Below, piece after piece: positions 34 through 14,132 of a DNA stretch of 14,132 nt. The position numbers were made by a program, and so were the translations under genes. The stretch lies in the IMG/VR virus record IMGVR_UViG_2534682295_000006; one strand, written 5' to 3'. Within the stretch, counting starts at the first letter, position 1. The number at the start of each line of letters is the position of its first letter. This stretch comes from a virus. Taxonomy: Duplodnaviria; Heunggongvirae; Uroviricota; Caudoviricetes. The notes under the pieces were generated by a model. It saw only the letters and a program-made list of their open reading frames with translations, was not told the DNA's origin and did not search any database.

Positions 34-786
34 TTAAATCGACATCGCGCTGAATGCCGCAGACGTCGACTTACGCCCTGGATAACGTTTATCCCAGTCA
101 CGCAACATGTCAGCAATCACCTGACGTTGCAGGTTAGGCTGTGAACCGCACAGGTTGCACGGAATAATCGGGAACGCTTTTGCATCGGCAAATCGCTGAA
201 TATCTTTCTCGCGGCAGTAGGCCAGCGGACGAATAACGATATGTTTGCCATCATCGCTCATCAGTTTCGGAGGCATACCTTTCATCTTGCCGCCGTAGAA
301 CATATTTAAGAACAACGTTTGCAGGATATCGTCACGATGGTGGCCCAACGCGATCTTCGTCGCCCCCAGTTCCGTTGCGGTGCGATAAAGGATACCGCGA
401 CGTAGCCGAGAACACAGTGAGCAAGTGGTTTTGCCCTCTGGAATCTTCTCTTTCACGATACCGTAAGTGTTCTCTTCAACAATCTTGTACTCAACGCCCA
501 GCTTTTCAAGATACTCGGGCAGAACGTGTTCCGGGAAGCCCGGTTGCTTTTGATCGAGGTTAACAGCCACCAGCGAAAAATTGATTGGCGCGCTTTGCTG
601 CAAATTGCGCAGAATCTCCAGCATGGTATAGCTGTCTTTACCCCCGGAGAGGCAAACCATGATGCGATCGCCTTCTTCAATCATATTGAAGTCAGCAATG
701 GCTTCGCCCACGTTACGACGCAGGCGTTTTTGTAATTTGTTCAGGTTGTATTGTTCTTTCTTTGTAATTTGTTGATTTTCTTGCAT
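34..786 (-). CDS. ttcA: tRNA 2-thiocytidine synthase TtcA, 250-aa ORF; C-terminal tail appears divergent and short relative to the roughly 311-aa K-12 protein as I recall it
   Basis: Track ORF. PP-loop motif SGGKDS and two CxxC motifs (CSLC, CNLC) present. First ~230 aa match my recollection of K-12 TtcA, after which the sequence differs and stops. Confidence 0.85.
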
Positions 787-837
787 TATTTCAGTTCTCT
801 GGTACTAAATGGGGCAAATTGGGGGCAAACTTTGCAA

Positions 838-2073
838 CTATGATAACCGCGCATTCAACATGGCTACCTGTTCGTCGTTCATGTCATCAATCCACATACC
901 GTAAATTTCATACACCATCTGCGCAGTTTCATGCCCCATTTGGCTGGCTATAAATGCCGGGTTCGCTCCTGCCGTCAACAGCCAGCAGGCAAAAGTATGC
1001 CGCGTATGGTACGGATTACGGCGGCGAATACCAGCACGTTTTACTGCTGCATTCCACCTTGCCCCCAAACTGCTTACCGAGTAATAAGGTTTTTGTTTTC
1101 CGTTACACACCCTGGGCATGAAAACAAAATGCAGTTTTTGCTTTTCGGTTCTGCCGTACTCCCGATGATAAAAGGTGATTTCGCTTTTGCGATGATGCCC
1201 GGTCAGTTTGTATTGCTCCTTCAGTGCTTCAAGAGCAGGCTGCAGTAGTGTTACCGTCCGGATCCCCGCATTTGTTTTTGGGGGACCGAACATATCCAGT
1301 ATCGTCAGGTTTCTTCTGACATTCACAACTCCCTTCTCGAAATCCACATCCTCCCACGCCAGAGCAGCCAGTTCCCCGTGACGAAGCCCGGAGTATACGG
1401 CAAATTTCCACAAGTTCTGGCTCTGTCCTTTTTCACTTTCCATTAATGCATTGAATTCTGTTTTAGATAACGGGTCAGGCTTTATTCTGTTTCTCTGTAA
1501 TTTCTTTACTCCTTCAAATGGTTTGGTTGATATAAATCCCGACTGATACGCAAAACGTAACAACGAACAGAGCAGGGCGATATAGTTATCAACTGTGCGC
1601 ACGGTTCTTCCTTTTTTGTTGGATCTTGGATTATCCAGGTAAAGCGTTTCTCCATGCAGCAGTTCATTCCGGTAGTTTAAGATATCGCTATAACGAATAT
1701 GCGATATCGGAGTACTCTCACAAATTATTATCCTGAGTGTTTTTAATTGTGATTTCGTTTTCTTCATTGTGTTTGTTGTTAACTCTGTTTCTTTAATTTT
1801 TGTCCAGATATCACAAAGCTCCCCGAACGTTTTTATGACCCTCGTTGTCACCATTTTTGCCCCAGTGCTGGACTGGGGAAAACGTCTTAAATACTCAAAC
1901 TCACCGGAATTGATTTCATGAACTATCAACGCTCTTAAATTCCCGGCTTTTTTAATGTTACTGTTAGTAACCTCCCAGCCTTTCAATGTTTCCCGACATC
2001 GTTTTCCTCGAAACATGAACCAGATGCGAATGTATTTACCTCGAATCTCGACACCTGTTGGTAATTTAGACAT
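838..2073 (-). CDS. intR: Rac prophage integrase, tyrosine recombinase, 411 aa
   Basis: Track ORF of 411 aa, matching recalled K-12 IntR length and N-terminus MSKLPTGVEIRGKYIRIWF. C-terminal HTRHT box and downstream conserved Tyr. Located next to ttcA and an excisionase gene. Confidence 0.93.
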   Translation of the reverse strand: MSKLPTGVEIRGKYIRIWFMFRGKRCRETLKGWEVTNSNIKKAGNLRALIVHEINSGEFEYLRRFPQSSTGAKMVTTRVIKTFGELCDIWTKIKETELTTNTMKKTKSQLKTLRIIICESTPISHIRYSDILNYRNELLHGETLYLDNPRSNKKGRTVRTVDNYIALLCSLLRFAYQSGFISTKPFEGVKKLQRNRIKPDPLSKTEFNALMESEKGQSQNLWKFAVYSGLRHGELAALAWEDVDFEKGVVNVRRNLTILDMFGPPKTNAGIRTVTLLQPALEALKEQYKLTGHHRKSEITFYHREYGRTEKQKLHFVFMPRVCNGKQKPYYSVSSLGARWNAAVKRAGIRRRNPYHTRHTFACWLLTAGANPAFIASQMGHETAQMVYEIYGMWIDDMNDEQVAMLNARLS

Positions 2074-2074
2074 A

Positions 2075-2290
2075 TCATGAGTCTTTGATAAACTGATTTA
2101 TCTTTGGATAGTTATACCAGATAATCCCTCGCTTACTGTCTGGCTTCCCTAAAGGAGATACTCGTTTGAAGTGGAAGCCTTCCACCCAACAGTTCTGGCG
2201 GTATGCTTCAATTTGTCTGGCCCCCAGACCAGTGCGAAGCATCAGGCCGTATTCAACCATCCACTCTTCATTAAAGATTACTTGTGCCAT
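2075..2290 (-). CDS. xisR: Rac excisionase, 71 aa from ATG at 2290; the track ORF extends 8 codons further upstream to 2314
   Basis: Translation [71 protein letters not shown] matches recalled YdaQ. Its stop at 2075-2077 lies 1 nt from the intR start codon. Confidence 0.85.
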
Positions 2291-2389
2291 CGCATCACCT
2301 CTGGCAGGCGCCAATGTTAGACTTAAATTGACGCCCGATGTTGATTATTAATAATCAGCTATGAAGTTTTAATTTGAATACAATGCAAT

Positions 2390-2590
2390 TCACGAGGACT
2401 GAAGTTTCTCGCAATTAAAATTTATCAGTTTTACTTTCTGCTCTCTGGAAACGCCTGCTTCTTTTTTACCTGAGAGCATTTTTTCGCATTCTGATTTCGT
2501 TAGTTTAGATTTTGAATATCTTGTCCAGTTAGTAGGAGTGCCACCTTCCTTTTCAATAGTGGCGGTAATTTTATACATGAACACCTCCAT
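2390..2590 (-). CDS. ydaC: Rac prophage small protein YdaC, 66 aa from MEVFMYK; alternative upstream start at 2650
   Basis: Track ORF 2390..2650. An internal ATG at 2590 gives the N-terminus MEVFMYKITATIEKEGG that I recall for YdaC. The 5' end overlaps the ralR 3' end. Confidence 0.75.
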   Translation of the reverse strand: MEVFMYKITATIEKEGGTPTNWTRYSKSKLTKSECEKMLSGKKEAGVSREQKVKLINFNCEKLQSS

Positions 2591-2765
2591 TATTATTTCC
2601 AGTGGTTCGTTTATTTCATCGTTCGAGTGCTTCTTTTTCACTTCCACCATAACCGGTTCGGGATTCGCATCCGTTACACTTCGCTCGGTAATATCCTGAA
2701 ATGGCTTTCACCGTTACTGATGGACAACCACAAAATGGACATGGTTTAACATTGTCATATCTCAT
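2571..2765 (-). pseudogene. ralR: ralR (lar) restriction-alleviation / type I toxin gene interrupted by an in-frame TGA at 2616-2618 (codon 50)
   Basis: Minus-strand translation from ATG 2765: MRYDNVKPCPFCGCPSVTVKAISGYYRAKCNGCESRTGYGGSEKEALER-stop-NKRTTGNNNGGVHV-TAA. Recalled K-12 Lar is 64 aa with Trp at the stop position. The track has no ORF of 60 aa or more here. Confidence 0.7.
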
Positions 2766-2793
2766 AATTTTTCTCATAAAAATATTTCAAGTT

Positions 2794-2812
2794 GGCGGTG
2801 CATTACACCGCC
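2794..2812 (-). terminator. GC-rich stem-loop GGCGGTG-CATTA-CACCGCC between recT and ralR; weak intrinsic-terminator candidate for leftward transcripts
   Basis: Perfect 7-bp inverted repeat with 5-nt loop read directly. On the minus strand it is followed by a moderately U-rich stretch (AACUUGAAAUAUUUUUAUG). Confidence 0.3.
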
Positions 2813-2820
2813 AGGCTGAA

Positions 2821-3630
2821 TTATTCCTCTGAATTATCGATTACACTGTATTCCCCGGTTAATACAGAGGAATCTGCAGGATCGATTGTCAGTGGTTCCT
2901 TTTCATCCATTGATACTGCACGCTGGATCTCAATTGATACGGGCAGATATTTGAACAGGCGACGAATAGCCGTTTTCTTTGCCATTTCTTCCCAGTGAGT
3001 TACCCACGGCCCGTTATTACCAGCTTTACTCTGGCTGCGCACCAGCTCAATCTGTTTGCGCGTCATAACTTCAAACTGAGTACCTCCGTCTTTCAGTCTT
3101 GCGACAGCATAGACGTGGGTAACAGGGGCATCTTCGTTTTCTCCTGGGCGGTGTATTAACTTTTCATCAAGGCCAAATTCGAAATTAAACTCGTCACCTT
3201 CACGGACAACACGGGCTGACAAGCTGGCGATTTGACCTGAACGGCGAGCCAGATCAATCATGCCTCGATAGCCAATGATTAGCTGAACGTTTTTTTTACC
3301 GCTCTTTTCGTTTTTATTACCAAAAGGCAGTAAATATGCATGACCGAGGGCGCTACCGGGCTCAAGTCCGAGCTGTGAACACTGTACGATTGCACTGACA
3401 AAACTCATAGTGTCACAGTTTCCTAACGCCGGAACTTTACGAATTTCTGTGGTGGCGATACGGATCATACGTTCAGCCGTCATATGGCGTGGAAGAGCTG
3501 CTGCCAGTTGCTCTTTCATTGATGGCTGGTTAATAAAACTAATCACGTCGTTATTTTTAATTGCTGCTGGTGCACGGTTTCCCTGAGTTTTTTGCAGATC
3601 GGCTTTTGCGATTGGTGGTTGCTTAGTCAT
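2821..3630 (-). CDS. recT: RecT single-strand annealing protein, 269 aa from ATG at 3630; the track ORF starts 19 codons upstream
   Basis: Translation from [29 protein letters not shown] matches recalled K-12 RecT. Its start overlaps the recE 3' end by 8 nt. Confidence 0.93.
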
Positions 3631-6223
3631 TTGCATATTCCTTAGCCCAGCGGGGCAGTGATAACGTCTTAATAGCTGGCCATTCATCGGTATTGAGGCA
3701 GTCAGCCAGGGTTCGCAGATTGCGGTGATATTCCAGCTGACCTGCCAGTTTTGCTTCTTCGCCCATCATGAAAATTTCAACCGGATAACGTCCGCATTCA
3801 ATAGTTGTGCTGGCAACCAGAAAAACGAAAGTTGGCTGCACTCCAAACTGTGCTTCATAACCGTCACTGTAGAATGCATCCTGAACGTGATAGCGGTAGT
3901 CGTAATAAGCGGTTTTGAATCGTTGAATATCCGCCGTAGTTTTCACGTCCATGATCCAGTGAAATTCAGGGATAATTTTGTCCGGACGGCACCGACACAA
4001 AATTGCTGTTTCAGGATCTTCCCAGTAAATTGATGATTCAGCGTGTCCGGCGCTTTCAACAAGCCATTGCCCCAGCGGCAAAGCCATAACGCTCTGATAC
4101 ATGAGTTCAATTTTCCGGCCTTCTTCGGCAGTGATAACCGTTTTTCCTGTGCTTGCGCATTCCCTCAGAAACGCTTTCTCTTCTTCTTTTCCGGAGTTTG
4201 TCCGGCGGTTAAATTCAGGTGCTACGATAAAGCGGTTACTGAATTCTTCCGGCTCAAGTACCCGGCAGTGGAAAGCGGTTCCTAAATCGAGCGTTTTTGT
4301 CTTTGTGGTGTCCACGGGGGCATTTTTACGCCACAAATACAGTGCCGGAGTATCAGCAATGTCATCGAGCTGAGACTTACTGACACCGGGACCCGCGTGG
4401 TAATTCTCATTCGAAATTCCGTAATAAATACCTGGCTCTATGTCTTCTACGATTACGGGATCTGCGACTTCGCCAGTTTCATCACTGCAATCGCGATGCG
4501 GATCGCTGCCAGCATTCTCATTGTGCGGATGTTCAGCGCCTTCCATTTCCTCCGGATCATTTTCCTTAGCTTCAACCTGACTCTCTTCATCGAATGTTTC
4601 CTGGTATGTTGCGTCGCCCATCACCGCACCACAGTCAGGGCAGTTATCCCCGCCAGTCTGGCCGCAGGCATTGCAGGCTATTTCCGGTTCCTGTTGCACT
4701 ACTGGCTCAGGTTGATTCATATCCGGGCTGGTTTTTTCCGTTTCTGGCTGGTTCTGGTACACACAATCGCGAGTCTGGATCCCCTTTACCCATTTCGGAT
4801 CGTTCGGGTCGCTAATTCCGTCAACAAATTCACCACGTGATGCAGCAAGCAATTTATCGGCATCGACAGGATTTTTTGATGGAATGTTTTTCCGGGCTTC
4901 ATGGAGTTCTGCCCGCAGTTCCTGATATTTCGCATCAACAGAATTTACCTGTGACTGAGCATCCAGCGGCTGCGTGTCCTGATGATGTTCAGTTGCGTCC
5001 GGTTCCATTGTTTCAGCCTCTCCCTGTTCAACTGCCGTTGTTCCAGATGGTTGCGGTTTTTCTTCATCATCCTGTTTTCCTTCTTCTGTTACTCGCTGCG
5101 GCATCGGGGCAGAGGAGCGACCGCAGGCAATATCCACGATTTCCGGATCAGGGTTGGCATGATCGGTTTCAGTCAGTACTTTGTTCAGATATTCAGTGAC
5201 GTGCGCGGGGATGACCTCGATCCCAATTGGTGCTTCTTTTACGGACGCAACCACGATGGCGCGGGAATAATCCAGCCCGCCAGGCATGGTGATGAATTTG
5301 TCGCGGAAAACAGAAAAGGGCGGTTTATTTTCAGCGATAATTTCCTCAATGCGTTTAGCGTGTGCCGGATGAAGGTTATAGATGTCCAGATCCATTGAAC
5401 GGGCCAGTACGCCAGTGGCTACGTCGCGCGCCAGTGACGTCAGATCGTGTACGAAACCTTCGCCGCGATCGGTGAGGTTTCCGCCGCCAGCATTAGCACC
5501 GGAAGCCGTGCGAGTGATGTGTGAAACACGATTACCCTTCATCCACTCTTTTGTCAGCAGTCCTCGATCGGTGTAGTCAGCGTTCAGGTATGCTTCGAAA
5601 AAAGCAGTTATCAGTCCCAGGTTTGAATTACCAGGATTAGGGAAAACTTTGTCAGTGTCACGAACCAGTTTGTGGAGTTCGCGAATTTCCAGCGGGTCGA
5701 GCAGGCTGGTTTTGTGGGAAACAGCCAGGGCAGTAACAGCCGGTAGTTCTTCAGCCCGAGCAATGTGTAATGCCTGGAGTCCGTCGCGTGAAACGTGCGT
5801 TACCGGTTTTTCGCTGCCGTGTTGAGCAAGCCAACGAATGGGCAGTTCCTGGCCAGAAATTGGGAGTAGCATATTCTCCTCAATCTCAGTCATGTCTTCG
5901 CCGTTGACGTTGGTATTGCCTTGATAGTGAGCGTTGTCTGGTGCTGCTCCCGGTTTTAGTTCCCATGTCATGGAGTCTTTGCTGAGTTGATAGCGTTCAC
6001 TCCAGGTAAAATCGATCTCACCTTCAGCGGGCAGGTCATTAACGACAGGAAAATTCGTGGCAACAGCTTTAAAATAGCTGCTCAGTTTTTTACCTGACTT
6101 AACGATCAGGTAGTCCAGAGTGGCACAGGTCGATTCAAAATCGTTGCTTGCCCACAGGACGACGTCAGGTTCACCGGATGATTTTTTCGCTTTCCGTAAC
6201 AGGAAGAGTGGTTTTGTGCTCAT
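3623..6223 (-). CDS. recE: RecE exonuclease VIII, 866 aa
   Basis: Track ORF of 866 aa; N-terminus [32 protein letters not shown] and length match recalled K-12 RecE. Immediately upstream of recT. Confidence 0.93.
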
Positions 6224-6296
6224 TGTTTTTTAACCTCAACTCAGATTAAAATTCGTTTTGTTCAGTGAATGATCTTGCCGGATACACACTGTTCAT

Positions 6297-6317
6297 AGCC
6301 TGCGCCATACGCAGGCT
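6297..6317. other. Perfect 8-bp stem-loop AGCCTGCG-CCATA-CGCAGGCT between the racC stop and recE start
   Basis: Inverted repeat read directly. On the plus strand it is followed by a T-rich run (ATTTCTTTCAGATTT); on the minus strand it lies 8 nt after the racC stop with no U-run. Confidence 0.35.
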
Positions 6318-6324
6318 ATTTCTT

Positions 6325-6600
6325 TCAGATTTCACCTTTTAATTTCATTGCAATTAGAGTTGCCAGAAATTCGGCTTTTTTTTCTGTGGGCAGATTCTTT
6401 CCGATATGCACCAGGCACATTTTTTTGACACCTTCATCAAGTGTTTTTACGTTGCCTGATGGACCATCGATATCAACCACAGTGAATGGGGTTTCTTTAT
6501 TTTCTGTTTTAATTACGTAGCCAATGCGCTTTCCTTCCAGATTCACCTCGTGAACAATGTCATCGGTAGTTACAACAGTGGCTTCATAATTGGTAATCAT
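6325..6600 (-). CDS. racC: Rac prophage protein RacC, 91 aa from ATG at 6600
   Basis: Translation MITNYEATVVTTDDIVHEVNLEGKRIGYVIKTENKETPF matches recalled RacC. Shine-Dalgarno AAGGAG lies 6 nt upstream of the ATG. Confidence 0.85.
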   Translation of the reverse strand: MITNYEATVVTTDDIVHEVNLEGKRIGYVIKTENKETPFTVVDIDGPSGNVKTLDEGVKKMCLVHIGKNLPTEKKAEFLATLIAMKLKGEI

Positions 6601-6674
6601 GTTTTTCTCCTTAATTAAGGTTGAGCGAATACCTGCCATTTCTGGCATAAATTCAGTTTCGAATAGTCAATTAA

Positions 6675-6845
6675 TTAAAGTTCATGTGCCATCTGGTCTT
6701 TTTCGGCACAAGCTTCACTGCAATATTTTCTCGGTTCGTCTTTTGATAAAATCCCGTGCATGAAGTGAAGCATTCTTTCAATAGCTTTGCTTTCTTCAAC
6801 GTCTTTTTTGCAAAGGTGGTAAGCACATTTTATTTTCTTAGTCAT
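6675..6845 (-). CDS. ydaE: Rac prophage small Cys-rich protein YdaE, 56 aa
   Basis: Manual minus-strand translation: [56 protein letters not shown]. Not in the ORF track because it is under 60 aa. Its start overlaps the kilR stop (TGATG). Confidence 0.82.
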   Translation of the reverse strand: MTKKIKCAYHLCKKDVEESKAIERMLHFMHGILSKDEPRKYCSEACAEKDQMAHEL

Positions 6846-7066
6846 CACCATGACTCCGCCTTTACAGGTAAACCATCACGACCGAGGAAGACTTTAATCA
6901 TGCGGTCAGTAATGCATGTTTTTGTGGTCAGGTTACGAATATATAGTTTTCGCTTTTTAATATTGTTTGCCGAGGCAATATATGTCCGGCCTTCATGAAG
7001 AACATAATCGCCAGGAGTCACACACTGACGTGGTATTTCATCAGTTCCGAAGTGATGTGCAATCAT
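6845..7066 (-). CDS. kilR: KilR cell-division inhibitor, 73 aa from ATG at 7066
   Basis: Translation [73 protein letters not shown] matches recalled KilR. GGAG Shine-Dalgarno upstream. Confidence 0.88.
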
Positions 7067-7246
7067 AATTATCTCCATTTTTACAAATGAACTTTGTTGA
7101 TGCGGTGCCTGGTGCCTCCAGGTGACTGCAACCAGTTAACAATTACAGTCGGCTTTCCCACCCAAACCAATAAGGACTAACATGACTTTTAACTGTGCCA
7201 CGTGCGCTTAGCCGCATTCACCGCATCACAAAATTCACTTTAAAAA

Positions 7247-7289
7247 GGGCGGACATCAGCCGAACTTCAAGAAAAAAACTGATGCCGCC
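7247..7289 (-). terminator. Candidate intrinsic terminator for leftward transcription in the kilR-sieB spacer
   Basis: Plus-strand arms GGCGGACATCAG (7248-7259) and CTGATGCCGCC (7279-7289) pair with one bulge around a 19-nt loop. On the minus strand the stem is followed by CUUUUUAAAGUGAAUUUU. Confidence 0.3.
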
Positions 7290-7507
7290 AGGACTACACA
7301 CAGCAATGTCGTTATTTACAACCGGAGGCGCACTCCCACCATTTAAATTTAACAGACAAGACCGACTCTTTATGGATATCGGAAATGCGCCTTCGTGTTG
7401 TGCCCGGTTTTATTTCACCACCTCCGGGCTTCGGTGGTCTCGGCTATACCCCTACAGCGAGAGCTTGTGTTAACATTTCAATACCCTTACAGTTGAGAGT
7501 TATTGAT

Positions 7508-7996
7508 ATGTTGGATGTATTTACTCCATTGTTGAAACTTTTTGCTAACGAGCCACTCGAAAGACTTATGTATACGATTATCATTTTTGGTCTCACTCTC
7601 TGGCTGATACCGAAAGAGTTTACTGTCGCATTCAATGCTTATACTGAAATACCTTGGCTCTTTCAGATTATCGTTTTTGCCTTTTCTTTCGTGGTCGCCA
7701 TTTCCTTCTCAAGATTGCGAGCACATATTCAAAAGCATTATTCATTACTACCAGAGCAACGAGTATTGCTTCGTTTATCTGAGAAAGAAATCGCTGTATT
7801 TAAAGATTTCCTTAAAACAGGAAATCTTATTATCACTTCTCCTTGCCGTAACCCGGTTATGAAAAAATTAGAACGGAAGGGCATCATTCAACATCAGAGT
7901 GATAGCGCAAACTGTTCTTATTATCTCGTCACCGAAAAATACTCCCATTTTATGAAGTTATTCTGGAACAGCAGGAGTAGACGTTTTAATCGTTAG
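7508..7996 (+). CDS. sieB: Superinfection exclusion protein SieB, 162 aa from ATG at 7508; the track ORF extends upstream to 7385
   Basis: Translation MLDVFTPLLKLFANEPLERLMYTIIIFGLTLWLIPKEF matches recalled SieB. Hydrophobic N-terminal segments. Opposite orientation to the surrounding operon. Confidence 0.88.
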   Translation: MLDVFTPLLKLFANEPLERLMYTIIIFGLTLWLIPKEFTVAFNAYTEIPWLFQIIVFAFSFVVAISFSRLRAHIQKHYSLLPEQRVLLRLSEKEIAVFKDFLKTGNLIITSPCRNPVMKKLERKGIIQHQSDSANCSYYLVTEKYSHFMKLFWNSRSRRFNR

Positions 7997-8148
7997 CTTA
8001 CTGTGTGCTTCTCCAACCATCGGCGCGCACCAGTTTCGGTTTTAAATGTTTTGCTTTTGGTATACGTCATGGCAGTGAACGTTCCATCCTGGTTGGGGAA
8101 CACGCCGCACACCAGGGATTCGTTGTTGCCGAGGTCGATTTTTTGCAT
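7993..8148 (-). CDS. ydaF: Rac prophage small protein YdaF, 51 aa
   Basis: Manual minus-strand translation: MQKIDLGNNESLVCGVFPNQDGTFTAMTYTKSKTFKTETGARRWLEKHTVS. Under 60 aa so absent from the track. Convergent with sieB, stop codons overlapping. Confidence 0.78.
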   Translation of the reverse strand: MQKIDLGNNESLVCGVFPNQDGTFTAMTYTKSKTFKTETGARRWLEKHTVS

Positions 8149-8158
8149 TTTGCGAATC

Positions 8159-8293
8159 TCACATCTTGTTGCTACGTATAGCGACTTCTGCCTGCCAGAG
8201 ATCCCAGTCGTTGCTGCGTAAAGCCTGCACAGCCTGGTTGTAAGTGATACCGCAACAATCCATCAAATACTGAACTACTTCGTAATGCACCAT
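8159..8293 (-). CDS. ydaG: Rac prophage small protein YdaG, 44 aa
   Basis: Manual minus-strand translation: MVHYEVVQYLMDCCGITYNQAVQALRSNDWDLWQAEVAIRSNKM, matching recalled YdaG. First gene downstream of the putative leftward promoter. Confidence 0.78.
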   Translation of the reverse strand: MVHYEVVQYLMDCCGITYNQAVQALRSNDWDLWQAEVAIRSNKM

Positions 8294-8454
8294 CTTATCT
8301 ATCCCCTTAACGCCGGGTGGCGGAACTAACTGCTGCACTGCAAAATTTGAATCCCGCCGTCATGTTCATACGCCTCGGGCTGGCTACTTAACCCCTGACC
8401 ACTGCCTGGTAACTCGAAGTATTGCCCGGCGTTCTGTGGGGCGGGGTGGGTTGG

Positions 8455-8520
8455 TAGGTATATAATGTACTTTGTGTTCATCATTGTAAAGTACTTTAAG
8501 TACATTTTATGTATAAAAAA
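8455..8520 (-). promoter_or_regulatory. Putative leftward early promoter/operator region upstream of ydaG
   Basis: AT-rich tract with palindrome AAGTACTT (8489-8496) and an inverted pair ATGTACT (8465-8471) / AGTACAT (8499-8505). Minus-strand TTTACA (8490-8485) with AT-rich -10 candidates 17-19 nt downstream. Confidence 0.4.
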
Positions 8521-8580
8521 ATGAGACGGGATAAAGTGAAGCACAAACCCGGAGGGGGACGCTACCGGATTTATGCTGGT

Positions 8581-9000
8581 TTAAGAGGCTTTTTGTTTTT
8601 TCTTTCGTGCTAACTCTTCGTAAATTGCATTGTACTTCTGTTTTTTCTCCTCAAGAGTTTTTAAAAGTTCATCTGTCTCACTGTCAGGGAGCTCGTCCAG
8701 AAGGTCAATGATGATTTTTTGTCTTGGATTTAACTCCTGATAGAAACGTATCTGTCCACTTTCTTCTGTATCCTCTCCCAAAAGATAGGTTGGTGTTGTT
8801 CCAATGAGTGTTGCTAATTCCCTTAATTTCTCTCGGCGAGGAATTGTTTCACCATTAAACCATTTGCTAACCGCTTTTGGTGTTAATTTCATTCGACGGG
8901 CAATTTCTGCCTGCCTTCCATGTTGTTCATAACCAGCGTTTTCACAGGCTAGCGCAAGCCTACTGGCGAACTCTTTACGCGCTTTATCTTCATGAACCAT
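8581..9000 (-). CDS. racR: Rac prophage repressor RacR, XRE-family HTH regulator, 139-aa ORF
   Basis: Track ORF. HTH-like segment GRQAEIARRMKLTPKAVSKWFNGETIPRREKLRELATLIG. Divergent from ydaS-ydaT. Confidence 0.88.
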   Translation of the reverse strand: MVHEDKARKEFASRLALACENAGYEQHGRQAEIARRMKLTPKAVSKWFNGETIPRREKLRELATLIGTTPTYLLGEDTEESGQIRFYQELNPRQKIIIDLLDELPDSETDELLKTLEEKKQKYNAIYEELARKKKQKAS

Positions 9001-9079
9001 AAGTTCAATGATATTCGCTCTTGAATGTACTGTCAGTTCTGTTATAGCATGTACTCAAAGTTCACATTGTGAGGGTGAT
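9001..9079. promoter_or_regulatory. Divergent racR / ydaS promoter-operator region
   Basis: Two direct copies of ATGTACT (9025-9031, 9049-9055) flank a plus-strand promoter candidate: -35 TTGAAT 9021-9026, -10 TATAGC 9043-9048. GAGGGTGAT Shine-Dalgarno precedes the ydaS ATG at 9080. Confidence 0.5.
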
Positions 9080-9334
9080 ATGAACCAGAAAACACTTGAA
9101 GATGTAATCAAAACTGTTCGCGTTTCTGTTGTGGCCGACGTTTGTGGTGTCAGCCAAAGAGCAATCTACAAATGGATGGATAACGGTAAATTGCCTCGCA
9201 CAGAATATACCGGCGAAACAAATTACGCTGAAAAAATCGCTCATGCATCAAACGGATTATTTTCTGCCGATGCAATTTTAACTATTGGCAGAAATAAAAC
9301 TACTACGAAAAAGCTGATGGGAGTTGATTCATGA
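9080..9334 (+). CDS. ydaS: YdaS, Cro-like HTH protein, 84 aa from ATG at 9080; the track ORF starts at 9008
   Basis: Strong Shine-Dalgarno GAGGG before ATG 9080. Using 9008 would leave only 7 bp between the divergent genes. Stop overlaps the ydaT start (ATGA). Confidence 0.82.
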   Translation: MNQKTLEDVIKTVRVSVVADVCGVSQRAIYKWMDNGKLPRTEYTGETNYAEKIAHASNGLFSADAILTIGRNKTTTKKLMGVDS

Positions 9335-9753
9335 AAATCAAGCATGAGCACATCGAATCAGTGTTGTTAGCCCTGGCAGCCGAAAAAGGGCAGGCGTGGG
9401 TCGCTAACGCAATTACTGAAGAATATCTGCGCCAGGGGGGCGGCGAATTGCCCCTGGTACCAGGCAAGGACTGGAACAATCAGCAGAATATCTATCATCG
9501 TTGGTTGAAAGGTGAAACGAATGCGCAAAGGGAAAAAATTCAGAAACTGATCCCTGCGGTTCTGGCAATTCTTCCTCGCGAGCTGCGTCACCGACTCTGC
9601 ATCTTCGATACCCTGGAACGCCGTGCATTACTGGCGGCACAGGATGCACTGAGTACGGCAATTGATGCGCATGATGATGCAGTCCAGGCCGTTTACCGTA
9701 AAGCACATTTCAGCGGCGGCGGTTCTCCTAGCGATTCTGTCGTAGTGCATTGA
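9331..9753 (+). CDS. ydaT: YdaT, Rac prophage toxic protein, 140 aa
   Basis: Track ORF of 140 aa starting MKIKHEHIESVLLALAAEKGQ, matching recalled YdaT length. Translationally coupled to ydaS. Confidence 0.88.
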   Translation: MKIKHEHIESVLLALAAEKGQAWVANAITEEYLRQGGGELPLVPGKDWNNQQNIYHRWLKGETNAQREKIQKLIPAVLAILPRELRHRLCIFDTLERRALLAAQDALSTAIDAHDDAVQAVYRKAHFSGGGSPSDSVVVH

Positions 9754-9766
9754 TTGAAATTAATCG

Positions 9767-9788
9767 TACCGAACTGTTTTGTTCGGTA
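9767..9788 (+). other. Stem-loop TACCGAAC-TGTTTT-GTTCGGTA after the ydaT stop
   Basis: Perfect 8-bp inverted repeat with 6-nt loop read directly. Sits 14 nt after the ydaT stop and just upstream of the first GTAACGC dyad. Confidence 0.3.
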
Positions 9789-9798
9789 TCAGTTAAAT

Positions 9799-9817
9799 GT
9801 AACGCTGCGAGCGTTAC
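9799..9817. repeat. Dyad repeat 1, GTAACGCT-GCG-AGCGTTAC, just upstream of the ydaU start
   Basis: 19-bp element with perfect 8-bp arms read directly. Same core as the two copies inside ydaU. Confidence 0.6.
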
Positions 9818-9830
9818 AAGGTGAAAACAA

Positions 9831-10619
9831 ATGGCTTCAAACTGGATAAAGCTCGAAGTTATTACGCCGGATAAGCCGGAAATATTCAGGCTTGCTGAGA
9901 TTCTGAATATTGATCCAGATGCCGCATTAGGGAAAGTCATTCGCTTCTGGGCATGGGCGGATCAACAAATGATAGACGGTAACGCAGAGTGTAACGCTCG
10001 CGGCGTTACAAAAAGTGCAATAGATCGCATCACTTTTATGGCTGGTTTTGCTGATGCGTTAATTCAGGTTGGATGGCTGGTCGAAACTAATGGTGTGTTG
10101 TCGCTTCCTAACTTTGAGCGCCATAACGGGAAAAGCTCTAAAAAACGGGCGGTTACAAACGAGAGAGTAACAAAAATACGAGAACTGAAACGAAAAGGTA
10201 ACGCTGCCAGCGTTACAAAAACGGATCAAAAAGCGTTACCAGAGGAAGAGAAAGAGGAAGATATAAATACTTATCTCCCCCTAAATCCCCCTCGCCAAAA
10301 ACGAGCGTCTAAAAAATTCGAACCGGAGGCTATCGAGCTGCCTGACTGGTTGCCGGAAACACTCTGGCATGAGTGGGTTCAGTTCAGGCAGGCATTGCGA
10401 AAACCGATTCGAACGGAGCAGGGCGCTAACGGGGCGATACGGGAGCTGGAAAAATTCCGCCAGCAGGGTTTTTCACCTGAGCAGGTGATTCGACACAGCA
10501 TCGCCAATGAATACCAGGGCTTGTTCGCGCCGAAAGGTGTTCGGCCAGAGACGTTGCTCCGACAGATTAACACCGTCTCGTTTCCGGACAGTGCGATCCC
10601 GCCAGGCTTCAGGGGGTAA
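9831..10619 (+). CDS. ydaU: YdaU, putative lambda O-like replication initiator, 262 aa
   Basis: Track ORF; an in-frame stop sits 2 codons upstream of the ATG. Directly upstream of the DnaC-like ydaV. Contains dyad repeats and an AT-rich linker. Confidence 0.85.
   Translation: MASNWIKLEVITPDKPEIFRLAEILNIDPDAALGKVIRFWAWADQQMIDGNAECNARGVTKSAIDRITFMAGFADALIQVGWLVETNGVLSLPNFERHNGKSSKKRAVTNERVTKIRELKRKGNAASVTKTDQKALPEEEKEEDINTYLPLNPPRQKRASKKFEPEAIELPDWLPETLWHEWVQFRQALRKPIRTEQGANGAIRELEKFRQQGFSPEQVIRHSIANEYQGLFAPKGVRPETLLRQINTVSFPDSAIPPGFRG
9991..10009. repeat. Dyad repeat 2, GTAACGC-TCGCG-GCGTTAC, inside ydaU, with an extra half-site GGTAACGC at 9978-9985
   Basis: Read directly. Encodes the NARGVTK peptide segment. 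Confidence 0.6.
10198..10216. repeat. Dyad repeat 3, GTAACGCTG-C-CAGCGTTAC, inside ydaU
   Basis: Perfect 9-bp arms read directly. Further half-sites at 10151-10157 (GGTTAC), 10167-10172 (GTAACA) and 10233-10239 (GCGTTAC). Confidence 0.6.
10241..10290. other. 20-nt all-purine tract, then an AT-rich segment and two C5 runs; candidate DNA-unwinding element of the origin
   Basis: AGAGGAAGAGAAAGAGGAAG (10241-10260), ATATAAATACTTATCT (10261-10276), CCCCCTAAATCCCCCT. Lies immediately after the dyad cluster, as in lambda ori. Confidence 0.45.
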
Positions 10620-10625
10620 CAGACC

Positions 10626-11372
10626 ATGAAAAATATTGCGACAGGCGGCGTTCTGGAACGTATCCGCAGACTGGCCCCGCCACATGTAACCGCGCCATTC
10701 AGGACGGTGGCGGAGTGGCGCGAGTGGCAACTTGCAGAAGGCCAGAAACGTTGTGAGGAGATCAACCGTCAGAATCGTCAGTTGCGGGTGGAAAAAATCC
10801 TGAATCGCTCCGGCATACAGCCGTTGCACCGCAAATGCTCGTTTGCGAATTACCAGGTGCAGAACGACGGCCAGCGATACGCGTTGAGTCAGGCGAAATC
10901 TATCGCTGACGAACTGGTTACCGGATGCACAAATTTCGCGTTCAGCGGAAAACCTGGTACCGGAAAAAACCATCTGGCGGCGGCTATCGGGAATCGCCTG
11001 CTGAAAGATGGCCAGACAGTGATTGTGGTTACCGTGGCTGATGTTATGAGCGCCCTGCACGCCAGCTATGACGACGGGCAGTCAGGCGAAAAATTTTTGC
11101 GGGAACTGTGCGAAGTTGATCTGCTGGTTCTTGATGAAATTGGTATTCAGCGCGAGACGAAAAACGAGCAGGTGGTACTGCACCAGATTGTTGATCGCCG
11201 GACAGCGTCAATGCGCAGCGTGGGGATGCTGACAAACCTGAACTATGAGGCCATGAAAACATTGCTCGGCGAGCGGATTATGGATCGCATGACCATGAAC
11301 GGCGGGCGCTGGGTGAATTTTAACTGGGAGAGCTGGCGCCCGAATGTTGGTCAGCCAGGTATTGAGAAGTAA
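10626..11372 (+). CDS. ydaV: YdaV, DnaC/IstB-like AAA+ helicase loader, 248 aa
   Basis: Track ORF. Walker [11 protein letters not shown] and Walker B LLVLDEIG. Length matches recalled YdaV. Confidence 0.9.
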
Positions 11373-11394
11373 TTTTTACCGGGAGGAAATTTTA

Positions 11395-12156
11395 ATGGAG
11401 ACCGTTTTTGACGCACTGAAAGCGATGGGAAAAGCCACGTCGGTAGAACTGGCTACGCGACTTGATATCAGTCGAGAAGAAGTGCTGAACGAGCTGTGGG
11501 AACTGAAAAAGGCTGGCTTCGTTGATAAAAGCGTATACACCTGGCGCGTGGCTGATAACAACGTTCAGCAGGAACAGCCAGCGCCGGCAGAGCTGCCGGA
11601 AGAAACCACCATGGCAACAGTAGCGAAAATCTCAGAGTGCGATTTAACCGCGACGATTGAACAACGTGGCCCACAAACGGCGGATGAGTTGGCTACATTG
11701 TTCGGTACCACATCACGCAAAGTAGCTTCAACGCTGGCAATGGCTATCAGCAAAGGACGCCTGATTCGCGTAAACCAGAACGGTAAATTTCGTTACTGCA
11801 TACCGGGCGATAATTTACCAGCAGAGCCGAAAGCAGCATCGGTAGCGGAAACTGATGGTAAGGCCTTTCCTCAGCCCACAGGTGTTGCGTTACCAGTACA
11901 GGAGGCTGCAACACAGGAAGATATTAAAACAGAAACGGTGGCGGACATTGTGCAGTCGCTGCCATCGTTTACTGAAACGCGAGCGGATGACCTGGTTTTA
12001 CCATCGCTGCATATGGCAAACCGCGAACTGCGTCGGGCGAAAAATCATGTCCAGAAGTGGGAGCGAGTCTGCGCCGCGCTGCGGGAGCTGAACAAGCACC
12101 GGGATATTGTTCGACAGATTTTCGATTCCTCCAGTCGTATTGTGTCGGAAAAGTGA
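11395..12156 (+). CDS. ydaW: YdaW-like protein with two tandem winged-helix-like segments, apparently full length at 253 aa
   Basis: Shine-Dalgarno GGGAGG 11381-11386 precedes ATG 11395. The track ORF starts at 11344, inside ydaV. K-12 ydaW is a truncated pseudogene as I recall. Confidence 0.75.
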
Positions 12157-12171
12157 TTGCCGGAGGCACCT

Positions 12172-12594
12172 ATGGCAAAAGTATTTACACCAGAAGAGCG
12201 GGAAAAAATTAAAGGGCAGGTTGTTGAACTTGTACGTCTGAGCGGTCGCGAGACGTTACGGGCTCTGGAGGCTAAAACCGGTGCATCAAGGTATTACATA
12301 AGCACTCTCGCCAGAGAACTGGTCGCCAGTGGTGATGTTTACAATTCAGGCTACGGATTATTCCCGTCTGAGCAGGCGCGTAAAGACTGGCAAAACGCCC
12401 GCAAAAAACTATCAAGGGCAAAGGTGAAGAAACCGGTTGTGGTTGATCCGGATCTTATCTGGTCATTACCAGACGGAGAAATACGCCGCTACGACAGGCG
12501 TCTGAACATAATCTGTAGCGAGTGCCGGAAGAGCGAAGCTATGCAGCGTGTACTGGCTTTCTATCAGGGTAATTTTCAGAAGGTGCTGTTGTGA
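12172..12594 (+). CDS. Hypothetical phage protein, 140 aa, possible HTH near the N-terminus
   Basis: Shine-Dalgarno GGAGG 12162-12166 precedes ATG 12172 (MAKVFTPEEREKIKG). The track ORF uses a TTG at 12157. Not recognised. Confidence 0.65.
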   Translation: MAKVFTPEEREKIKGQVVELVRLSGRETLRALEAKTGASRYYISTLARELVASGDVYNSGYGLFPSEQARKDWQNARKKLSRAKVKKPVVVDPDLIWSLPDGEIRRYDRRLNIICSECRKSEAMQRVLAFYQGNFQKVLL

Positions 12595-12699
12595 GCCAAA
12601 TTAACAATCGGAACTTCGTGAAGAGAAAGCATAATCCAAATCTGAATAATTAAGTTCAGCACTGTAAATAAAATTTAATCCTTAACTGGAGGTATATTT

Positions 12700-12912
12700 A
12701 TGTTAAATACACAGAAAGCCATTAATGCGGAAAAATATAACGAGTGGGCAAGAAAATTCTCTGAGCAGATTTTTAAAATTACTGGCGATGAGAATGCGGC
12801 AAAAAATGAATTAGAACCGTGGACGCCTGAAGGAGCCGACCCAAATTATTGCTGGAGGGAGGTTGATCCAGTTGATGCTGCAAATGAAGCTATGAGTTAT
12901 CACAACGATTAA
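12700..12912 (+). CDS. Hypothetical small acidic protein, 70 aa, in an AT-richer segment
   Basis: Shine-Dalgarno GGAGG 12687-12691 precedes ATG 12700. 14 Asp/Glu versus 7 Lys/Arg. Hand-counted GC is about 40 percent (85 of 213 nt). Confidence 0.6.
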   Translation: MLNTQKAINAEKYNEWARKFSEQIFKITGDENAAKNELEPWTPEGADPNYCWREVDPVDAANEAMSYHND

Positions 12913-12921
12913 TGTCAGGAG

Positions 12922-12937
12922 GCCGCCCGAAAGGGCG
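12922..12937 (+). terminator. Short GC stem-loop CCGCCC-GAAA-GGGCGG after the 70-aa gene
   Basis: 6-bp GC stem with GAAA tetraloop read directly. The downstream U-tract is weak (UAAUGAAUGG), so terminator function is uncertain. Confidence 0.3.
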
Positions 12938-13024
12938 GTAATGAATGGTCACATTATTTAGAAAAAATATCCGCGAAAGAGTAGAACAACAGAATTTCTG
13001 TTTCTCATTCTGTTTATCGTGTTG

Positions 13025-13162
13025 ATGATACCGATATCCCCGTTAATCCTAGTCTGGATAATCGGAAAAATAATTGAGCCAGTTATTGAATTGTATAACG
13101 ACGTGGTATGGGCGTCATTCAACACACTGCACAATAAAATTAATCCGTATAAGGAAAACTGA
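13025..13162 (+). CDS. Candidate small hydrophobic protein of about 45 aa (MIPISPLILVWIIGKIIEPVIELYNDVVWASFNTLHNKINPYKEN)
   Basis: Manual translation. The frame is open from 12962 and encodes FLFLILFIVL before the ATG, so GTG 13019 or TTG 13022 are alternative starts. Stop overlaps the next ATG (TGATATG). Confidence 0.35.
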   Translation: MIPISPLILVWIIGKIIEPVIELYNDVVWASFNTLHNKINPYKEN

Positions 13163-13163
13163 T

Positions 13164-13427
13164 ATGGCAACTTTGACAAAAAAAGAACGGGCATGGTTGA
13201 ACGAATTACAGGAAGTTCTTGATCGCTGTCCATCACCGAAAAAAATTGGCTTTTACACCATTGGCGATAAAAGCATTTACCTGTATGACCTACGCCGCAT
13301 GGATGAAATCATGGAGGCTCTTGATAATCGTTCGTCGATGGATTGGTGTGTTGCTGTTCATGATATGAATGCAGGGTTTGATGAAAAGATTTTGTTCCCC
13401 TCATCAGTTGAAAGCACTGCGGGTTAA
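13164..13427 (+). CDS. Hypothetical phage protein, 87 aa (MATLTKKERAWLNELQEVLDRCPSPKK...)
   Basis: Shine-Dalgarno AAGGAAAA 13151-13158 precedes ATG 13164. The track ORF 13074..13427 is the same frame extended upstream. Not recognised. Confidence 0.65.
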   Translation: MATLTKKERAWLNELQEVLDRCPSPKKIGFYTIGDKSIYLYDLRRMDEIMEALDNRSSMDWCVAVHDMNAGFDEKILFPSSVESTAG

Positions 13428-13437
13428 GGAGTAACAC

Positions 13438-13599
13438 ATGACCACTATTACCAAAGAACGTATTGAATTGTTCATTAAAAATCCGGTTGAAAACGGGCTT
13501 ACCCGTGGTGAACAAATGGAACTGGCACGGATTGCGCTGGCATCGCTGGAAGCAGAGCCAGTTGGTGATTTTTATGAATACAAACCGGATGACTGGTAG
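13438..13599 (+). CDS. Hypothetical 53-aa ORF ending at a TAG that is in frame with the next ORF
   Basis: Shine-Dalgarno AGGAG 13427-13431 precedes ATG 13438: MTTITKERIELFIKNPVENGLTRGEQMELARIALASLEAEPVGDFYEYKPDDW. Under 60 aa, so absent from the track. Confidence 0.55.
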   Translation: MTTITKERIELFIKNPVENGLTRGEQMELARIALASLEAEPVGDFYEYKPDDW

Positions 13600-13665
13600 C
13601 AGCGTTCGGCTGGAGATAAAGCGCCAAAATGGACGCCACCCTATGCCGTTTTTCCAGCGCCCGTA

Positions 13666-13923
13666 GTGCCGGAAGAAATGGATTTGCTTACATGCCATCT
13701 CGATGGTGTAACTGAAACATATGCTGAGGGATGGAACGCTTGCCGCGCTGCCCTGCTTCAGGGCAAAGGGGAGCCCGGGAAACAAGTTCGCGAATTGACA
13801 ATGCTGGTTAAACAATTGGTTAGTCAACTGAAGAAAGCGAAACCGGGCTGCAAATTGCCGGATAAAGTGATGGACTACCTGGAGCGAAGCGGACTTATAA
13901 GCGTGGAGGATGTTTCACGATGA
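13666..13923 (+). CDS. Hypothetical ORF in the same frame as 13438..13599, with a weak own start (GTG 13666 or ATG 13678)
   Basis: Track ORF. No stop codon between the TAG at 13597-13599 and 13666; no convincing Shine-Dalgarno. Confidence 0.45.
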   Translation: MPEEMDLLTCHLDGVTETYAEGWNACRAALLQGKGEPGKQVRELTMLVKQLVSQLKKAKPGCKLPDKVMDYLERSGLISVEDVSR

Positions 13924-14003
13924 CCTGGCCTGAAGCATTCACAACGGTAGGAATTGCGATGGCGGTGGCGCTGGTTGTGTATTCGATTTGCCGCTGGGGA
14001 TAA
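13920..14003 (+). CDS. Candidate 27-aa single-helix hydrophobic peptide (MTWPEAFTTVGIAMAVALVVYSICRWG)
   Basis: Manual translation. Its ATG overlaps the upstream stop (ATGA). One predicted transmembrane-like stretch. Too short to call confidently. Confidence 0.3.
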   Translation: MTWPEAFTTVGIAMAVALVVYSICRWG

Positions 14004-14132
14004 AAACGGTTTGCGGGAAAAGGATAGTTAAGTAGAATTGCTGCGGGTGCTTGAGGCTATCTGCCTCGGGCATGCCACCGTAAGGCAGACAGAGAAAAGC
14101 CCCAGTTAACATTACGCGTCCTGCAAGACGCC

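Follow-up and report, generated by a model that had tools for sequence, protein, structure and literature searches.

We analysed here a stretch of phage DNA of 14,132 nucleotides (the window) and identify its positions 12172-14003 as an already known and annotated accessory segment of the prophage Sp10/CP-933R, located in the rightward early operon and having the gene model given below; we put the probability of this reading at about three in four, a figure which covers mainly the identification and the gene model, the functional steps being far less certain. The block is made up, mosaic-like, of small-gene modules that can be exchanged independently, and is placed 3' of the replication genes (ydaU-like, ydaV and ydaW). 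With one Ren-like gene, three intact small genes and two broken ones, it represents ordinary phage mosaic DNA. The features referred to in the text are as follows.

11344-12156, plus strand: ydaW-like context gene (DUF1627) with an N-terminal winged-helix-like region; PGAP start at 11395
12172-12594, plus strand: gene A, Ren-like/DUF977/"LygF", 140 aa, basic (pI 9.8); ECs_1948, "phage exclusion protein"
12700-12912, plus strand: gene B, 70 aa, acidic (pI 4.5), phrog_4659; ECs_1949
12923-12938, plus strand: GC-rich hairpin CCGCCC-GAAA-GGGCGG, extended by a G-U pair (12922/12939)
12945-13162, plus strand: gene C, DUF4014 membrane-protein gene (phrog_1832) broken by a -1 frameshift
13164-13427, plus strand: gene D, 87 aa, acidic (pI 4.9), phrog_1714; ECs_1950
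13438-13923, plus strand: gene E/F, Eaa-like (phrog_660), split by an in-frame TAG at 13597-13599
13920-14003, plus strand: gene G, 27-aa hydrophobic peptide MTWPEAFTTVGIAMAVALVVYSICRWG, unannotated in RefSeq and in Sakai
14045-14132, plus strand: putative start of a hok/sok-type leader, outside 12172-14003 and cut by the window end

Identity and position of the block

In the alignment, positions 72-14102 of the window are 99.9% identical to prophage Sp10 of Escherichia coli O157:H7 Sakai, which in EDL933 is named CP-933R; this lambdoid prophage of the Rac family is inserted at ttcA. Positions 12100-14008 show no differences from strain E2863. Sequence not belonging to Sp10 is found at the window ends (the first ~71 and the last ~125 bases). 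Sp10 of Sakai has the same gene order, the same frameshift and the same amber codon as the window, and the 27-aa ORF was annotated neither there nor by PGAP. The ydaW-like gene preceding the block (a DUF1627 protein in E2863, ECs_1946 in Sakai) matches Pfam DUF1627 at E 4e-101, as well as several HTH families.

The first-pass annotation, made from the sequence, described the genes of the block as unrecognised; this does not hold, as the region carries the Sakai annotation ECs_1948-1951 at the above identity and the families DUF977/phrog_142 and DUF4014 were found in it. It was right in placing the block, within a Rac-like prophage, 3' of the replication genes, in noting its absence from the Rac remnant of K-12, where ydaW is followed by rzpR/rzoR/trkG, and in regarding the members as accessory genes without assigned function. 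The suggested correspondence to the nin region of lambda is correct for position, both being located past the replication genes and ahead of a Q-like antiterminator region, which in Sp10 comes at some distance. It does not extend to content: none of the NinB-NinI families appeared among the Pfam or PHROG matches of any ORF, and genes B to G are homologous to the early-left-operon "ea" genes of 933W, ArgO145 and P22-like phages.

The "ea" region (ST933Wp05-08 of 933W, ArgO145 and P22-like phages, with EaA, Ead/Ea22, DUF551 and DUF4014) gave DNA matches of 76-97% to gene B, the DUF4014 gene, the Eaa-like gene and the 27-aa module, and the order of a DUF4014 gene, a small gene and an EaA-like gene is repeated there. 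The 933W gene which follows DUF4014 is not a homologue of gene D. The two arrangements differ in location, since the "ea" genes are found between exo/bet and xis/int while the present block belongs to a rightward operon past the replication genes, and in the two members that are broken in the window. What we observe is "ea"-type modules moved to the lambda nin position, two of them decayed, a textbook case of lambdoid mosaicism whose importance beyond annotation hygiene is slight. The G+C content falls to 32-43% across 12500-13450, as compared with 51-55% in the flanks.

Intact and broken genes

PHROG family matches (E 1e-20 to 1e-51) were obtained for all listed ORFs except the 27-aa one. Judging by these matches and by the length-conserved homologues of the 87-aa and 70-aa proteins, the ORFs exceed chance. 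Neither NCBIfam, which gave zero matches among the small ORFs, nor PDB sequence searches, for which gene A and profiles of D, E/F and B served as queries and where nothing scored under E 0.07, added to the picture, and the papers found contained a functional report for none of the members. On the minus strand, the long ORF 13309-13827 belongs to no family; the ORF 12958-13236 does match phrog_20982, yet it is regarded as a shadow ORF because it is antisense to conserved plus-strand genes.

Six separate ORFs had been listed for the block. Four of them (12172-12594, 12700-12912, 13164-13427 and 13920-14003) stand as described, all with good Shine-Dalgarno sites (GGAGG or AAGGA), while the other two (13025-13162 and 13438-13923) are pieces of broken genes, the former having no such site. 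Tight spacing is seen at some junctions only, the gap between A and B being 105 nt and that between B and the DUF4014 start 32 nt. Several members were said to be very small or hydrophobic; two are hydrophobic.

Gene A, with GGAGG 5 nt ahead of its ATG, matches Pfam DUF977 over the whole model (98.2 bits, cutoff 22.1; positions 1-134 of 134) and phrog_142, "Ren-like exclusion protein", over positions 1-114 of 116 (E 1.5e-45). Lambda Ren hits the same PHROG family at E 1.6e-41 and shares with gene A the C-terminal motif CRxSxAMxRVLAxY (E 9e-7). Against Pfam DUF977 lambda Ren remained below reporting at E<=1, so the tie between the two proteins rests on the PHROG family and the C-terminal motif. 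As far as profile and motif comparison goes, gene A is a member of the lambda Ren family, a basic protein with a predicted HTH; both proteins have an N-terminal HTH-like region and are encoded in the rightward early operon past the replication genes. They differ in size (96 aa in Ren, 140 aa in gene A), their pairwise similarity covers only 20 residues, and lambda ren follows P, whereas Rac-like phages place ydaW between the helicase-loader gene and gene A. Position after ydaV and ydaW is the same in the window, Rac-SA53 and vB_EcoS-673R7 and is constant in Rac-like phages, the annotation "LygF" being given directly 3' of ydaW in Rac-SA53 and other phages. A search of the literature on "lygF" and "DUF977" returned no functional study; a link to lambda Ren can now be drawn for the DUF977/"LygF" proteins of Rac-like phages, a family still bearing a DUF number. 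The part played by Ren is itself ill defined. A two-hybrid interaction of lambda Ren with Rex proteins was described, and ren is viewed as likely involved in replication (preprint 10.1101/2021.04.19.439022).

Gene B (GGAGG 7 nt ahead of the ATG) is, by sequence comparison, an intact and conserved small gene, the homologues of which keep its length. An exhaustive profile search returned 13 matches in total; three of these, to proteins of exceptional length (1,885-3,770 aa, with E<1e-5 in two cases), we set aside as probably spurious. The hairpin at 12923-12938 begins 10 nt past the gene B stop and separates AGGAGG (12917-12922) from ATG 12945. It has a minimum free energy of -16.9 kcal/mol (z -3.1) and is unchanged in phiSTEC1589-Stx1c; it is not a classical terminator, because no T run comes after it.

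The ORF 13025-13162 constitutes the final 45 codons of gene C, a 72-codon gene starting with ATG 12945. It matches Pfam DUF4014 (53.8 bits, cutoff 23.2) at model positions 28-72 only, while the repaired homologue matches phrog_1832 over 1-72. DNA alignment located the lesion in a homopolymeric run, A6 at 12962-12967 in the window and A7 in the intact homologue (72 aa, at 2501-2719 of locus L007), i.e. one A was lost, and TAG at 12959-12961 shuts the downstream frame at its 5' side. Gene C, flagged by PGAP as "frameshifted", is therefore a DUF4014 pseudogene in which an intact frame of ~72 codons is absent. The 45-aa DUF4014 fragment could still be produced and active.

Gene D starts 1 nt past the preceding stop and has AAGGA upstream. 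Its homologues keep their length, and it is conserved across Enterobacterales with a confident, compact predicted fold.

The second broken gene is E/F, whose halves share one frame and match the N- and C-terminal ends of phrog_660. Intact homologues, of 159-167 aa and 82-99% identity, carry Gln or Tyr where the TAG stands. An amber codon inactivates this Eaa-like gene, whose modules are not in one polypeptide. In consequence, two "hypothetical proteins" of RefSeq, annotated as separate CDSs (ECs_1951, 53 aa, and an 81-aa PGAP CDS from 13678), are halves of a single nonsense-mutated gene. Both the N-terminal 53-aa and the C-terminal 81-aa fragments could still be produced and active.

The start of gene G overlaps the stop of E/F (ATGA), and GGAGG lies 10 nt upstream. 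The gene corresponds to an 84-bp module, with limits equal to those of the ORF, which recurs in 933W, BP-4795, phi467, ArgO145, pPE4 and POCJ13 with downstream neighbours differing between them. Each of the six copies has an ORF of unchanged length that starts within an ATGA overlap and is preceded by a GGAGG-like site; the frame is open in five, while that of POCJ13 is interrupted by TAG at codon 3. Of 5426 complete E. coli genomes, 1637 (30%) carry the module, in ~3,100 copies, and the exact peptide was called as a gene on 79 contigs. Annotation lacks this common ORF for a putative 27-aa membrane peptide. As non-synonymous changes exceed synonymous ones among the compared copies, the coding case is built on conservation of the ORF and its context and not on a substitution-rate test. 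A cluster grouping G with 121-aa DUF551 proteins was taken as an artefact; those proteins do not contain the peptide.

Past gene G, positions 14045-14103 matched the Rfam sok model RF01794 with 53.6 bits (E 1.7e-10; gathering score 59). Being cut by the window end, the match covers model positions 1-58 of 157, and there is no hok ORF inside the window. In 933W the equivalent of 14045-14132 is followed by sokW/mokW/hokW; in Sp10 itself only a remnant of the locus is present, hok being absent.

Expression and possible functions

A crude consensus scan detected no plus-strand sigma-70-like site in 11300-14132, and the counts from promoter and terminator scans were not above those in shuffled sequence. 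The absence of such a site is consistent with read-through transcription. Transcripts of ECs1949 and ECs1951 are listed in a published transcriptome network of O157 (PMC7286201). The spacing suggests that the genes of the block would be co-transcribed with the replication genes upon derepression, and that some of them may be translationally coupled. Gene A would then act as lambda Ren does, beside the replication machinery, guarding the phage from Rex-type abortive infection, while the small acidic and membrane proteins may be dispensable factors of the "ea" class that interact with the host; the two lesions would be a sign that selection is relaxed in this partly defective prophage. We further propose, tentatively and taking both parts jointly at somewhat below even odds, that G is a single-pass membrane micropeptide whose gene is paired with the Eaa-like/DUF551 gene ahead of it, the pair being conserved and translationally coupled in many lambdoid phages, and, separately, that D may represent a fold without solved relative and act as a phage inhibitor of a host factor.

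A reading of B and D (acidic, cytosolic), possibly together with G, as inhibitors serving anti-defence or host takeover, which would bind and block a factor of the host or of a competing phage, seems to us rather unlikely. The small size and acidity of B and D recall other small acidic phage early proteins, the modules are AT-rich and located in the accessory part of the early operon, they have homologues among the dispensable "ea" genes of Stx and P22-like phages, and gene D keeps its compact predicted fold across Enterobacterales; however, none of B, D and G matches a characterised inhibitor, a Pfam family or a solved structure, and the structure matches of gene B are generic helical bundles only. 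Such an activity would be compatible with the accessory segment of the early operon described above, as its refinement and not its replacement.

A reading of the entire segment as prophage DNA in decay, devoid of function and with the remaining ORFs as relics, is improbable. Two of the six reading frames are inactivated, both lesions are common to all genomes of at least 99% identity, and K-12 Rac has lost the block wholly, but Sp10 is otherwise nearly intact and mobile, its excision still occurring and its transfer being possible (PMC2669165). Moreover, A, B, D and G are intact and length-conserved, with Shine-Dalgarno sites, across many phages and species.

Lambda Ren shields the phage from Rex, allowing its growth when RexA/RexB are present, and is not known to exclude other phages, which counts against reading the old Sakai label of ECs_1948 as a sign of host defence. 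Least probable of all is a lysogen-expressed moron or defence cassette protecting the host by superinfection exclusion, an idea favoured by that label, by the phrog_142 category ("moron, auxiliary metabolic gene and host takeover"), by the insert-like low-G+C segment, by the putative hok/sok leader that comes next and by the ECs1949 and ECs1951 transcripts which a transcriptome network study detected in the O157 lysogen under ClO2 stress (PMC7286201), yet opposed by PADLOC, whose defence models at E<=0.01 gave zero matches among the seven small ORFs, and by genes unframed by a plus-strand promoter-like site or an intrinsic terminator.

Gene content and conservation of the block

The block of small plus-strand genes at 12172-14003, 3' of the ydaW-like gene, is part of a Rac-family prophage that is well known and already annotated: searched by megablast over its full length against complete E. 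coli genomes, the window is 99.9% identical at positions 72-14102 to many from O157:H7, including Sakai and EDL933, and positions 12100-14008 equal strain E2863 with no base differing. The Sakai record labels the matching stretch 'prophage Sp10, lambda-like phage'; this nearly intact prophage excises spontaneously and can move, at low frequency, into K-12 (PMC2669165). The annotated order (ttcA, intR, xisR, ralR, recT, recE, kilR, sieB, repressor, cro-like gene, ydaT, replication genes, the ydaW-like DUF1627 gene, block) bears out the first-pass annotation, which saw an accessory block 3' of the replication genes, and its absence from K-12 Rac, where rzpR, rzoR and trkG come after ydaW, was also correctly noted. 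The genes had been called unrecognised, which does not hold: the region is already annotated in Sp10, and members match the families DUF977, DUF4014, phrog_142 and phrog_660. The observation is partly confirmed and its interpretation partly supported; this is a genuine feature of an ordinary kind, known before. Four of the six ORFs proposed are real (genes A, B, D and G), and two were misread. Good Shine-Dalgarno sites, claimed for the cluster, were found as GGAGG in front of A and B and are missing from 13025-13162.

Features of the block
12172-12594, plus strand: gene A, genuine gene, GGAGG 5 nt upstream
12700-12912, plus strand: gene B, genuine gene, GGAGG 7 nt upstream
12923-12938: stable hairpin between a strong AGGAGG and the DUF4014 ATG (12917-12947), -16.9 kcal/mol, z -3.1
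13025-13162, plus strand: ORF of the first-pass annotation, no ribosome-binding site
13164-13427, plus strand: gene D, genuine gene, starting 1 nt past the preceding stop
13920-14003, plus strand: gene G, intact 27-codon ORF, its ATG overlapping the upstream stop (ATGA)

Gene A belongs to Pfam DUF977 (98.2 bits) and to phrog_142, 'Ren-like exclusion protein', which lambda Ren (NC_001416) also matches (E 1.6e-41); Ren did not reach DUF977 in Pfam. A C-terminal motif is common to both proteins (12/20 residues identical, E 9e-7), and this Ren link for DUF977 is one of the mildly new points. The counterpart in Rac-SA53 and related phages, named lygF, is always 3' of ydaW, and the position of gene A after ydaW mirrors that of lambda ren after P. 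According to a preprint on the proteins RexA and RexB, Rex proteins interact with O and Ren by two-hybrid, and ren likely takes part in replication (10.1101/2021.04.19.439022). The role of gene A would most likely be that of Ren, a replication-module accessory factor shielding the phage from Rex-type abortive infection. The ydaW-like DUF1627 protein itself (11344-12156, plus strand) has a winged-helix-like N-terminal region, and its residues 102-150 match phrog_142 weakly (E 2.7e-4), which hints at a domain common to ydaW and the Ren-like gene.

Genes B and D encode small acidic proteins. The 70-aa product of B was seen only in Escherichia/Shigella prophages; its profile, run against 1.84 billion representatives, gave 13 matches, among them a few small distant relatives sharing the motif DPVDAANEALSYY, and the model is a three-helix bundle with generic structural matches only. 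The 87-aa product of D is conserved at constant length, with seven invariant residues, in Salmonella, Klebsiella, Enterobacter, Edwardsiella, Pectobacterium and Serratia, with identity as low as 52%; in the viral structure set there is a single homologue, which is unnamed.

Gene G encodes a hydrophobic peptide, and this unannotated 27-aa ORF is another mildly new point: PGAP does not annotate it, while some submitters call it as a gene. An 84-bp module, its ends those of the ORF, recurs in 933W, BP-4795, phi467, ArgO145, pPE4 and POCJ13; of 5426 complete E. coli genomes 1637 carry it, with as many as seven copies in one genome. Downstream neighbours vary, and an Eaa-like or DUF551 gene is always 5'. 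The ATGA overlap, a GGAGG-like site, the 27 codons and the WPEAF...RWG ends are kept (RWR in 933W); the POCJ13 copy has a stop at codon 3. Since non-synonymous changes between copies outnumber synonymous ones, the coding case rests on conservation of frame and context, not on substitution rates. B, D and G would most likely be dispensable host-interaction factors, and an anti-defence role for them is plausible but conjectural; PADLOC defence models matched no member of the block.

Two lesions

The ORF at 13025-13162 is a frameshift fragment, covering only positions 28-72 of the 72-residue DUF4014 model. Alignment with the intact 72-codon homologue of phage phiSTEC1589-Stx1c places the true start of this gene, C, at ATG 12945 and reveals the loss of one A (A6 at 12962-12967, A7 in the homologue); PGAP likewise marks the CDS as frameshifted. 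The GC hairpin in its leader, with a GAAA loop, is kept in phiSTEC1589-Stx1c. When folded it could bring AGGAGG to about 6 nt from the start, i.e. normal spacing; an alternative role would be to shield the gene B message at its 3' end. On the minus strand, a 92-aa ORF (12958-13236) lying opposite the DUF4014 gene and gene D matches phrog_20982 (E 7e-28), probably a family of mis-called shadow ORFs.

The stretch 13438-13923 (E/F) is not one ORF, as it contains an in-frame TAG at 13597-13599. Its halves match N-terminal positions 3-60 and C-terminal positions 130-192 of phrog_660. We read E/F as an Eaa-like gene with a nonsense mutation, because intact proteins of 159-167 aa, 82-99% identical, have Gln or Tyr at the stop position. 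Sakai and PGAP each list the two pieces as hypothetical proteins in their own right; that these are halves of one pseudogene is also mildly new.

Mosaic structure and expression

G+C is 32-43% over 12500-13450 versus 51-55% in both flanks, and BLAST against phage genomes splits the block into modules, each with its own distribution.

Modules
gene A
12630-13175: gene B with DUF4014, about 90% identical in ArgO145 and Stx2 phages
12951-13175: DUF4014 alone, 91% in 933W
13160-13460: gene D
13423-13562: Eaa N-terminal part, 91% in P22-like phages
13519-13562: 44-bp core common to many DUF551/Eaa genes
gene G
hok leader

The core encodes ARIALASLEAEPV and is 93-98% identical across many DUF551/Eaa genes that otherwise differ, in Stx and Salmonella phages; it may serve in recombination as a linker joining N-terminal and variable modules. 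The early-left operon of 933W and ArgO145 carries these modules between exo/bet and xis/int, arranged as Ead/Ea22, small genes, DUF4014, small gene, EaA/DUF551. This location argues that the block is by descent 'ea'-type accessory DNA, sitting where lambda has nin genes. Likeness to nin by homology must be given up, as no ORF matched Nin families in Pfam or PHROGs.

Gene content, the two lesions, the mosaic make-up and the conservation of A, B, D and G are demonstrated; how the block works is inferred. No plus-strand promoter-like sites or intrinsic terminators beyond chance were found in 11300-14132, and all block genes point the same way as the replication genes; on the simplest reading, transcription from the early rightward promoter would run through the block once the prophage is derepressed. 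The 1-nt DUF4014/D junction and the E/F-G overlap would allow translational coupling. ECs1949 (gene B) and ECs1951 are present in an O157 transcriptome network (PMC7286201), so some signal from these two was at least picked up.

Window ends and neighbouring loci

The ends, 1-88 and 14009-14132, are foreign to Sp10. Positions 1-88 match hypC (95.5%), joined to ttcA via a 17-nt overlap (72-88), and the last ~125 bases are closer to a hok/sok leader from a different lambdoid prophage (98.6%) than to the copy in Sp10 itself, with its 10 differences over 14009-14099. This suggests a draft contig whose ends are chimeric at repeats. At 2394-2572 (plus strand) lies RalA sRNA (Rfam RF02694, 225 bits), which serves Rac-like prophages as antitoxin in the ralR type I toxin-antitoxin pair. 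At the right end, just 3' of the block, a probable hok/sok-type locus is represented by its 5' portion, 14045-14132 (plus strand; Rfam sok match of 53.6 bits, under the gathering score of 59), and a promoter-like pair, TTGCGG-16 nt-TAGAAT, was seen by eye at 14011-14038. The same leader precedes sokW/mokW/hokW in 933W. In Sp10 proper (14946-15070 of L001, a locus carrying Sp10 sequence beyond the window end) only a remnant of the hok/sok locus is left, with no hok ORF, and a DNA cytosine methyltransferase comes next. This Dcm-type gene, then a convergent O-methyltransferase and an ATP-binding protein (L001 15256-18755), may form a defence or modification island adjoining the block.
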